Of a stretch of 27,363 nucleotides of DNA, positions 21,123-21,819 are shown piece after piece. How positions within the stretch are numbered: position 1 is the first letter of the stretch; each line of letters opens with the position of its first letter. Position numbers and translations under genes: made by a program. Origin of the DNA: a virus; the UHGV virus genome UHGV-0044886; one strand, given 5' to 3'. Below the pieces are notes generated by a model. It was not told where the DNA came from. It saw nothing but the letters and a program-made list of their open reading frames with translations, and did no database searches.

Positions 21123-21548
21123 ATGCTCGGCATTCTCAAAAAGAAATTCCGCAAAGCGGCTGGCGGAGTCAAGAAGATGGAAAACCGTGATGCGGTGGAA
21201 GCGACTGTCTGGGGCGCATATTCCATTGCATACTCTGACGGCACCTGCGATGCGAAAGAAATTGCAGTATTGGAAAAAACCATTGCAGCACTTCCTGCCT
21301 TTGCGCCGTTCTCCGGTGAAATTGCCCAGATGAGCGCCAATATTCGCGCTCAATATGAAGCCTCGCCGCGCCGAGCGAATGCCCAGGCTTTACGTGAACT
21401 GGCTGACGTGTCTGGAACTAATGATGCGGTAGATGTTCTGTGCCTATGCATTGATATTGCTGACCAGGATGGCATTGGGGCAGAAGAGCAGGAGCAATTG
21501 AAGAAAATTGCCCAGGCTCTTCAATTGCCACTGGAACAGTATATCTGA
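21123..21548 (+). CDS. tciA: TerB-like domain protein (tellurite-resistance TerB family fold), possibly the P1 tciA equivalent
   Basis: 141 aa; TGAGG RBS; two TerB-like repeats (AYSIAYSDGTCDAKEIAVLEK... and LCLCIDIADQDGIGAEEQEQLKKIAQALQL) comparable to the TerB ...ASDG..EEK... / ...AKSDG..DDDEK... pattern. Symbol from memory of P1. Confidence 0.55.
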   Translation: MLGILKKKFRKAAGGVKKMENRDAVEATVWGAYSIAYSDGTCDAKEIAVLEKTIAALPAFAPFSGEIAQMSANIRAQYEASPRRANAQALRELADVSGTNDAVDVLCLCIDIADQDGIGAEEQEQLKKIAQALQLPLEQYI

Positions 21549-21712
21549 TGGTTATAAAAGCACGTCTAATTCTGGCTTTGGTTTTTCTCGTGCTATCTGT
21601 GCTGGTGGATTTCACCAGCACAATCCTGTCGGTTTTATCCGACGGGGCGTTGGTAGCAGTAGCTGTAACATTGGTATGGCCGATATTTAAACCAGCCTCG
21701 AAGGATCAGTGA
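21548..21712 (+). CDS. small hydrophobic membrane peptide (54 aa)
   Basis: ATG overlaps the upstream stop (TGATG); MVIKARLILALVFLVLSVLVDFTSTILSVLSDGALVAVAVTLVWPIFKPASKDQ has two predicted TM segments. Below the ORF-track cutoff. Confidence 0.35.
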   Translation: MVIKARLILALVFLVLSVLVDFTSTILSVLSDGALVAVAVTLVWPIFKPASKDQ

Positions 21713-21819
21713 TGAGCTTCTGGGATTTTGCAGATAAGTATCCAATTGTTCTCATTATCATTGTTGCCATAGTTGTAGGCGGTATTGTTAGCGCCATTGA
21801 AGCACTTAGGAAACAGTAA
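21712..21819 (+). CDS. small hydrophobic membrane peptide (35 aa)
   Basis: ATG overlaps the previous stop (TGATG); MSFWDFADKYPIVLIIIVAIVVGGIVSAIEALRKQ has a single TM helix; ends 3 nt before the tRNA. Confidence 0.35.
   Translation: MSFWDFADKYPIVLIIIVAIVVGGIVSAIEALRKQ

Follow-up and report, generated by a model that had tools for sequence, protein, structure and literature searches.

The window, as we call the whole 27,363-nt stretch of virus genome UHGV-0044886 that was analyzed, is by its sequence a P1-like phage-plasmid, and its positions 21123–21819 correspond to the genes tciA, tciB, and tciC. The surrounding 3.4 kb shows 97% nucleotide identity with bacteriophage P1. In the P1 record (GenBank AF234172), the genes follow in the order tRNA-Asn, tRNA-Thr, plp and upl (on the other strand), tciA, tciB, tciC, trnI, ban, and dbn; the order upl, tciA, tciB, tciC, tRNA-Ile, ban is common to the window and P1. 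The initial annotation, made from the sequence without database searches, had named the P1 tci locus as a conditional guess, and both the identity and the gene order bear it out. The trio is already known: it has been annotated as tciABC in P1 since 2004, where the tci name was given by homology only, and its members are named terB, upf69.4, and upf69.6 in P7.

The initial annotation had also described open reading frames of 141, 54, and 35 aa, joined by TGATG overlaps and ending 3 nt before a tRNA with a CAT anticodon, and all of these are located where it had placed them (Table 1). One base is shared at both the tciA/tciB and the tciB/tciC junctions, and the gap between the tciC stop codon and the tRNA is TCC. 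The start of tciC is an ATG in the P1 annotation and a GTG one codon earlier in the list of open reading frames. The arrangement of the trio, including the 3-nt gap before the tRNA, is kept in all 47 P1-like IMG/VR loci, as well as in P1 and P7. Since it is conserved in all P1-like loci examined, this arrangement is not due to chance.

Table 1. Coordinates of the tci genes and of other features of the window.
Feature	Position	Strand	Details
P1 immunity RNAs: c4 antisense RNA and a1/b1 target sites	547–599, 668–753	+	Rfam
hok/sok-type toxin–antitoxin module	4067–4391	+	between repL and bplB
sok	4067–4241	+	Rfam, 114 bits
Hok-like frame	4236–4391	+	51 aa; with overlapping Mok-like frame
Pban promoters and C1 operator Oban (start of ban operon)	19556–19584	+	99% identical to the annotated P1 region
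Intrinsic terminator	19746–19772	+	8-bp GC-rich stem, then T7; at the end of the dicF-like region
plp frame	20494–20739	−	cut by a stop codon to 81 codons (125 in P1)
tciA	21123–21548	+	ATG 21123, TGA 21546–21548; 141 aa
tciB	21548–21712	+	ATG 21548, TGA 21710–21712; 54 aa
tciC	21712–21819	+	ATG 21712, TAA 21817–21819; 35 aa
Patch of differences from P1	21688–22071		3′ end of tciB, tciC, tRNA, spacer
tRNA-Ile2	21823–21898	+	anticodon CAT; ARAGORN; Rfam, 61.7 bits; trnI (ileX-like) in P1
Structured RNA core	21908–22090, possibly to about 22146	+	31-sequence alignment; unannotated
ban	22184–23548		DnaB-type helicase gene, downstream of the tRNA

The tci genes are part of the C1-repressed ban operon, between upl and tRNA-Ile2. 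At the start of this operon, the P1 annotation places the promoters P1ban and P2ban and a divalent C1 operator. An intrinsic terminator separates Pban from the tRNAs, the tci genes, and ban, so everything downstream must be transcribed either by read-through or from another start. In the plp stretch, 12% of the bases differ from P1, and as the P1 plp overlaps tRNA-Thr on the opposite strand, the plp gene call is doubtful. At a distance from the tci locus, the window contains the c4, a1, and b1 immunity RNAs, which are expected for a P1-like element, and a hok/sok-type module between repL and bplB, the place where MokW is annotated in some P1 relatives.

The window TciA is 100% identical to the P1 protein, whereas TciB is identical in 52 of 54 residues and TciC in 26 of 35, with nine residues differing. 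TciB and TciC are 100% identical to their counterparts in Salmonella phage SJ46. The differences from P1 are concentrated in one patch, which takes in the 3′ end of tciB, tciC, with 12% of its bases changed, and the spacer, with 7%; only one base differs in the tRNA within this patch, and the 426 bases of tciA likewise contain one change. Such clustering suggests a recombinational exchange of the cassette. In P7, a very divergent TerB allele precedes a nearly identical 3′ half of tciB and tciC. A comparison of 77 P1-like phage-plasmids indicated that tciABC is one of eight hypervariable regions and that about half of the subgroup 1 elements do not have it; a link to phage inhibition was asked about in the same work (PMC9603915). 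In RCS47-type P1 relatives, the tciABC slot (RCS47 positions 1638–2465) encodes one 275-aa SPFH/Band-7 membrane-scaffold protein (PF01145, E 1e-30), which is labelled as a serine protease in the record. The presence of this protein indicates that the slot carries interchangeable membrane-directed cargo.

ARAGORN called the tRNA downstream of tciC a tRNA-Met. This call was rejected, because every sampled full-length match is annotated as tRNA-Ile and P1 annotates the gene as trnI. It is 88% identical to a chromosomal gene that is annotated as tRNA-Ile in E. coli K-12 and most other sampled genomes. These matches identify the tRNA as tRNA-Ile2, which would read AUA after the predicted lysidine modification. 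The acceptor-stem pairs C4–G69 and C5–G68, which we take to be TilS determinants, can be read directly in the sequence. Because of the 3-nt gap, RNase P cleavage at the 5′ end of this tRNA would leave the tciABC message with just three bases beyond its final stop codon. Maturation of the tRNA and translation of tciC may thus hinder one another.

An unannotated structured RNA, supported by covariation and without an Rfam family, lies in the 285-nt spacer that separates tRNA-Ile2 from ban. An alignment of 31 copies, each below 95% identity, reveals six helices, namely five variable ones, one of which forms a pseudoknot, and an invariant GCACAU:AUGUGC pairing. In the helices, 97.5% of the alignment cells are in standard pairs, compared with 23–53% when the partners are slid by 1–3 columns. 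Eleven pairs carry changes in both partners, and the observed covariation score is higher than in each of 500 shuffles. The frequent G–U pairs indicate that the RNA strand is the plus strand of the window. In most copies, an additional helix, UGAGAGCAUU...AGUGCUCUCA, encloses a variable insert; in the P1-like copies, this helix is weak. The single-sequence folding z-score of the spacer is 0.05. An Rfam search with a stand-alone copy of this RNA revealed no family even at E ≤ 5, and its invariant 19-mer was not found in a literature search. A scan for consensus sigma-70 promoters gave a candidate upstream of only four of 119 copies.

The core of this RNA is about 80% conserved in Stx2 and Stx2c phages and in cdtI, mEp460, phiV10, and TL-2011b; SPN1S and phages of Klebsiella, Enterobacter, and Stenotrophomonas share its 3′ half. 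It is almost always without annotation. The core was detected in 2,147 of 5,426 complete E. coli genomes (40%), mostly in chromosomal prophages, and nearly all of the sampled matches have no overlapping annotation. An exact 33-nt match to window positions 21929–21961 is present in the genome of E. coli 2012C-4502 (NZ_CP027440.1, 1868887–1868919); since it is located within an annotated CRISPR array, it seems to be a spacer taken up from a phage that has this RNA. The first genes downstream of the RNA fall into 38 clusters among 129 contexts, which means that the RNA is not a ban-specific leader. tRNA-Ile2 is directly upstream in 31 copies, and tRNA-Arg(UCU) is directly downstream in 22 copies (ARAGORN, anticodon TCT). 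In lambdoid prophages, the RNA is located between the repressor gene and the YfdP/Q/R/S genes. In phiV10 (DQ126339.2), an unannotated tRNA gene (2242–2315, plus strand; Rfam, 73 bits) is found downstream of the RNA; it overlaps the hypothetical gene PhiV10p04 on the opposite strand and is followed by a strong terminator at 2362–2397. The structured RNA is on the same transcript as the tci genes and lies outside the tci module. RNA biologists may find it more interesting than the tci genes, and it merits a separate follow-up.

According to profile matches and a structure model, TciA is a small TerB-fold protein without a membrane-spanning segment. The TerB profile suggested in the initial annotation, PF05099, is matched in two stretches with a score of 28.4 bits against a gathering cut-off of 24.4 (E 2e-6), and phrog_632, described as ‘tellurite resistance’, is matched with E 7e-62. 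The modelled structure is confident, all-helical, and resembles TerB-like structures; a profile search against the sequences of solved structures, TerB included, gave nothing significant. The two TerB-type repeats proposed earlier can be read in the sequence as D39-G40-x5-E46...L50 and D116-G117-x4-E122...L126, and D116 and G117 show no variation among 58 homologues, in which D39 and G40 are almost invariant. The best 19-residue hydropathy window of the protein is 1.21, a value that does not indicate a membrane-spanning segment. Residues 1–19 include seven basic and no acidic residues (a charge of +7), whereas the remainder is net acidic; the basic residues of this tail are invariant in the same 58 homologues. 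A search of the tci proteins against NCBIfam gave nothing above the cut-offs, and TciA, TciB, and TciC have no match at E ≤ 1 among the PADLOC models, which include Bunzi and Shango.

TciB belongs to the DUF3927 family. It matches PF13064 with 101.3 bits against a cut-off of 25 (E 3e-29, profile positions 1–53 of 53) and also matches phrog_1470. The two small peptides had been described as hydrophobic, and hydropathy agrees: TciB is hydrophobic across most of residues 2–47, and TciC across residues 11–29. D21-F22-T23, D32-G33, W44-P45, and K48 of TciB are invariant in the P1-like, lambdoid, and N4-like homologues, and they persist across lineages in which synonymous sites are saturated. The tciB gene has no ribosome-binding site of its own, so its translation is presumably coupled to that of tciA. 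In the literature searched, ‘TciB’ came up only in unrelated senses, and a word-indexed sequence search returned close relatives only.

TciC matches phrog_23152, a 35-residue family of unknown function (E 2e-26), and no other family. Its single hydrophobic stretch has a hydropathy of 2.98. Among the IMG/VR loci examined, it is confined to the P1-like ones, and a tblastn search of a phage collection returned identical copies only. Two allele classes of tciC can be distinguished, one shared by the window and Salmonella phage SJ46 and the other including P1; their distribution is independent of that of the two TciA allele classes. Between the classes, omega is about 0.6–0.7, and the window and P1 differ by nine non-synonymous and four synonymous changes. 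These values, together with a premature stop two codons before the end in one locus and with the finding of no homologue outside P1-like phages, would fit a tciC that is non-functional, its frame being kept by chance or by a constraint on the tRNA leader, so that only tciA and tciB encode products. This explanation is improbable, however, because the frame is open and free of insertions and deletions in all 47 P1-like loci, and an AAGGA ribosome-binding site is well placed 6 nt upstream of the ATG that overlaps the tciB stop codon. Moreover, each of the seven changes in the hydrophobic core (residues 11–29) exchanges one of I, V, A, G, and S for another, the sequences FWDFADK and IEAL at the charged ends are retained, and omega is about 0.14–0.22 among most pairs inside the window’s class. 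TciC is weakly constrained and would lie outside the conserved TciA–TciB core.

In a genome-wide CRISPRi screen, tciA, tciB, tciC, trnI, and ban were non-essential, and the knock-down of the tci genes did not reduce plating efficiency (PMC10695390); laboratory hosts thus support lytic growth and plaque formation without the module. TciA peptides were detected by mass spectrometry of purified P1 virions and were set aside as non-structural (PMC9024508). In the P1vir transcriptome, the induction of tciA, tciB, and tciC was changed in an hfq mutant host (bioRxiv 10.64898/2025.12.28.696737). Our literature search found no functional experiment on tciABC, including any on a tellurite, colicin, or exclusion phenotype.

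The ‘i’ in tci refers to inhibition, and the inhibition of cell division during phage development, with a dicF-like RNA heading the same operon, is one of the roles that can be considered. It is among the homology-based roles listed in the P1 annotation, where a dicF-like region is part of the operon; this region is conserved in the window, and tciA, tciB, and tciC have been grouped with icd and kilA as division-control genes (bioRxiv 10.64898/2025.12.28.696737). However, that grouping was made by annotation only, none of the three proteins has a domain resembling a known division inhibitor (Pfam, PHROG, and NCBIfam), and the filamentation linked to ter genes was reported for the whole terZABCDE operon (PMC4633105). 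We regard a role in division control as highly improbable.

The first two genes of the trio form a pair that is found well beyond P1. In the best 80 IMG/VR loci with a TciB relative, an ORF matching the TerB profile precedes the DUF3927 ORF in every case, with an overlap of 1 or 4 nt. The pair is also encoded by the virulent N4-like podophages Pollock and FSL SP-058, and by phage-plasmid-like contigs of about 110 kb, where it is located beside RNase T, Dam, and RNase H genes; in these contexts, too, the stop and start codons overlap or abut. Both tciA and tciB are under purifying selection, pN being well below pS in every pair compared. The pairing is not absolute, since phage 434 and its relatives have a TciB homologue without an upstream TerB gene. 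In one class of lambdoid prophages, the TerB ORF is shortened to 48 or 93 aa and tciB is intact. One Logan contig encodes a 196-aa TciA–TciB fusion (P0015) whose TGATG junction is slightly altered; the fusion could be natural though rare, or could reflect faulty assembly. The AlphaFold model of this fusion has a low pLDDT (51) and a helix break at D32-G33, and it is uninformative about an interface.

Some of these contexts bring lysis to mind. In a Nissabacter lambdoid prophage, the pair is located between a Q antiterminator and a methylase gene upstream and holin and lysozyme genes immediately downstream; in phage 434, TciB is likewise encoded downstream of the Q antiterminator; and the size and hydrophobicity of TciB and TciC are typical of lysis-cassette peptides. 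Accordingly, TciB and TciC might adjust holin triggering or membrane energization, and thereby the timing of lysis, with TciA as a cytoplasmic regulator. On the other hand, the pair is not beside lysis genes in P1, in the N4-like phages, or in the contigs of about 110 kb, the knock-down of the tci genes left the plating efficiency unreduced, and neither peptide matches a holin or antiholin family in Pfam or PHROG. A role in lysis timing therefore seems quite improbable to us.

Our best explanation overall, to which we give an even chance, is that TciA and TciB form a conserved accessory module in which TciA is docked by TciB, that this module has a membrane role in lytic growth, and that TciC is an add-on. 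TciA would be a small cytoplasmic protein with a TerB fold, its body acidic and its N-terminal tail rich in lysine, and TciB a hairpin-like 54-aa membrane micro-protein with the conserved polar residues D21, T23, and D32. The overlap of the stop and start codons would couple the translation of tciA and tciB, so the two proteins are probably made together. TciB probably brings TciA to the inner membrane, which would parallel the interaction of TerB with TerC in ter operons; the membrane-tethered TerB-like domain of DjlA provides a second analogy for a TciA anchored by TciB. The invariant basic residues of the TciA tail (+7) would fit such a link to the membrane. The module may act on the state of the membrane, either under ion, metal, or envelope stress or as a protection from membrane-directed attack. 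As the pair is controlled by a repressor in P1, located beside lysis genes in a lambdoid prophage, and present in virulent phages, its role is most likely in the lytic phase. TciC would be an extra single-pass membrane peptide of P1-like phages, added via a second translational coupling.

The same settings bear on lysogenic conversion, in which tciABC would give a P1 lysogen resistance to tellurite or to pore-forming colicins, or would exclude other phages. TciA belongs to the TerB family, and ter operons have been associated with resistance to tellurite and colicins and with the inhibition of phages (PMC8123226, PMC9603915); besides, the tci slot is hypervariable in P1-like elements, as the slots of defense cargo often are (PMC9603915). 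Nevertheless, the tci genes are behind the C1-repressed Pban and should be silent in lysogens, which argues against a lysogen-protecting role, and the TciA–TciB pair is also found in the virulent N4-like phages, which form no lysogens. None of terC, terD, terE, terZ, and terA is near tci in the window, P1, P7, or the other contexts examined, the smallest resistance construct named in PMC11003894 is terBCDEF, and the tci proteins match no PADLOC defense model. Lysogenic conversion is thus very unlikely as a whole. For tellurite or colicin resistance of lysogens in particular, the lytic settings, the missing ter partner genes, and the size of the smallest named construct make a contribution of the tci module unlikely.

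A bolder form of the docking explanation is possible, though we lean against it. The TciA–TciB pair might be a widespread self-contained module, consisting of a cytoplasmic TerB-fold sensor and a DUF3927 micro-protein, that was acquired separately by unrelated phage lineages (P1-like, lambdoid, phage-plasmid-like elements of about 110 kb, and virulent N4-like) and keeps the membrane of the infected cell functional during lytic growth. It could do so, for example, by countering membrane-depolarizing abortive infection or a colicin-like attack, or it could block superinfection; TciC would then be a third subunit, added in P1-like phages.

For further work, the unit to be studied is the translationally coupled TciA–TciB pair rather than the trio, and the question of its function is narrowed to lytic growth rather than lysogens. 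Tests of the pair would be genetically simpler in virulent N4-like phages. The present comparison sharpens the question of function without answering it.

The initial annotation had pointed out that TerB domains recur in membrane-associated stress and defense loci, and published systems agree with this. TciA shares its Pfam family and its TerB-like helical fold with TerB of the terZABCDE(F) operons. This TerB is a soluble protein reported to interact with the membrane protein TerC (PMC11003894), and its association with the membrane is attributed to Alekhina 2011 as cited in bioRxiv 10.1101/2022.05.11.491447; a soluble TerB that associates with the membrane and TerC can serve as a model for TciA and TciB. 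The analogy covers the fold and the membrane association only, since no terC, terD, terE, or terZ accompanies tci, and TciB, a 54-aa DUF3927 protein, is unrelated to TerC. In the membrane co-chaperone DjlA, a transmembrane helix anchors a TerB-like domain to the inner membrane on its cytoplasmic side (bioRxiv 10.1101/2024.08.29.610257), whereas the tci module has no J domain, and its putative anchor and TerB domain are separate polypeptides. The Bunzi and Shango defense proteins also contain a TerB domain and have been proposed to monitor the membrane (bioRxiv 10.1101/2022.05.11.491447). Compared with these systems, tci is far smaller, is carried by phages, has no enzymatic partner genes, and occurs in settings that point to lytic expression. 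As TerB domains appear in defense systems, a phage TerB module with a 54-aa partner is a possible tractable model for the action of this domain at the membrane.
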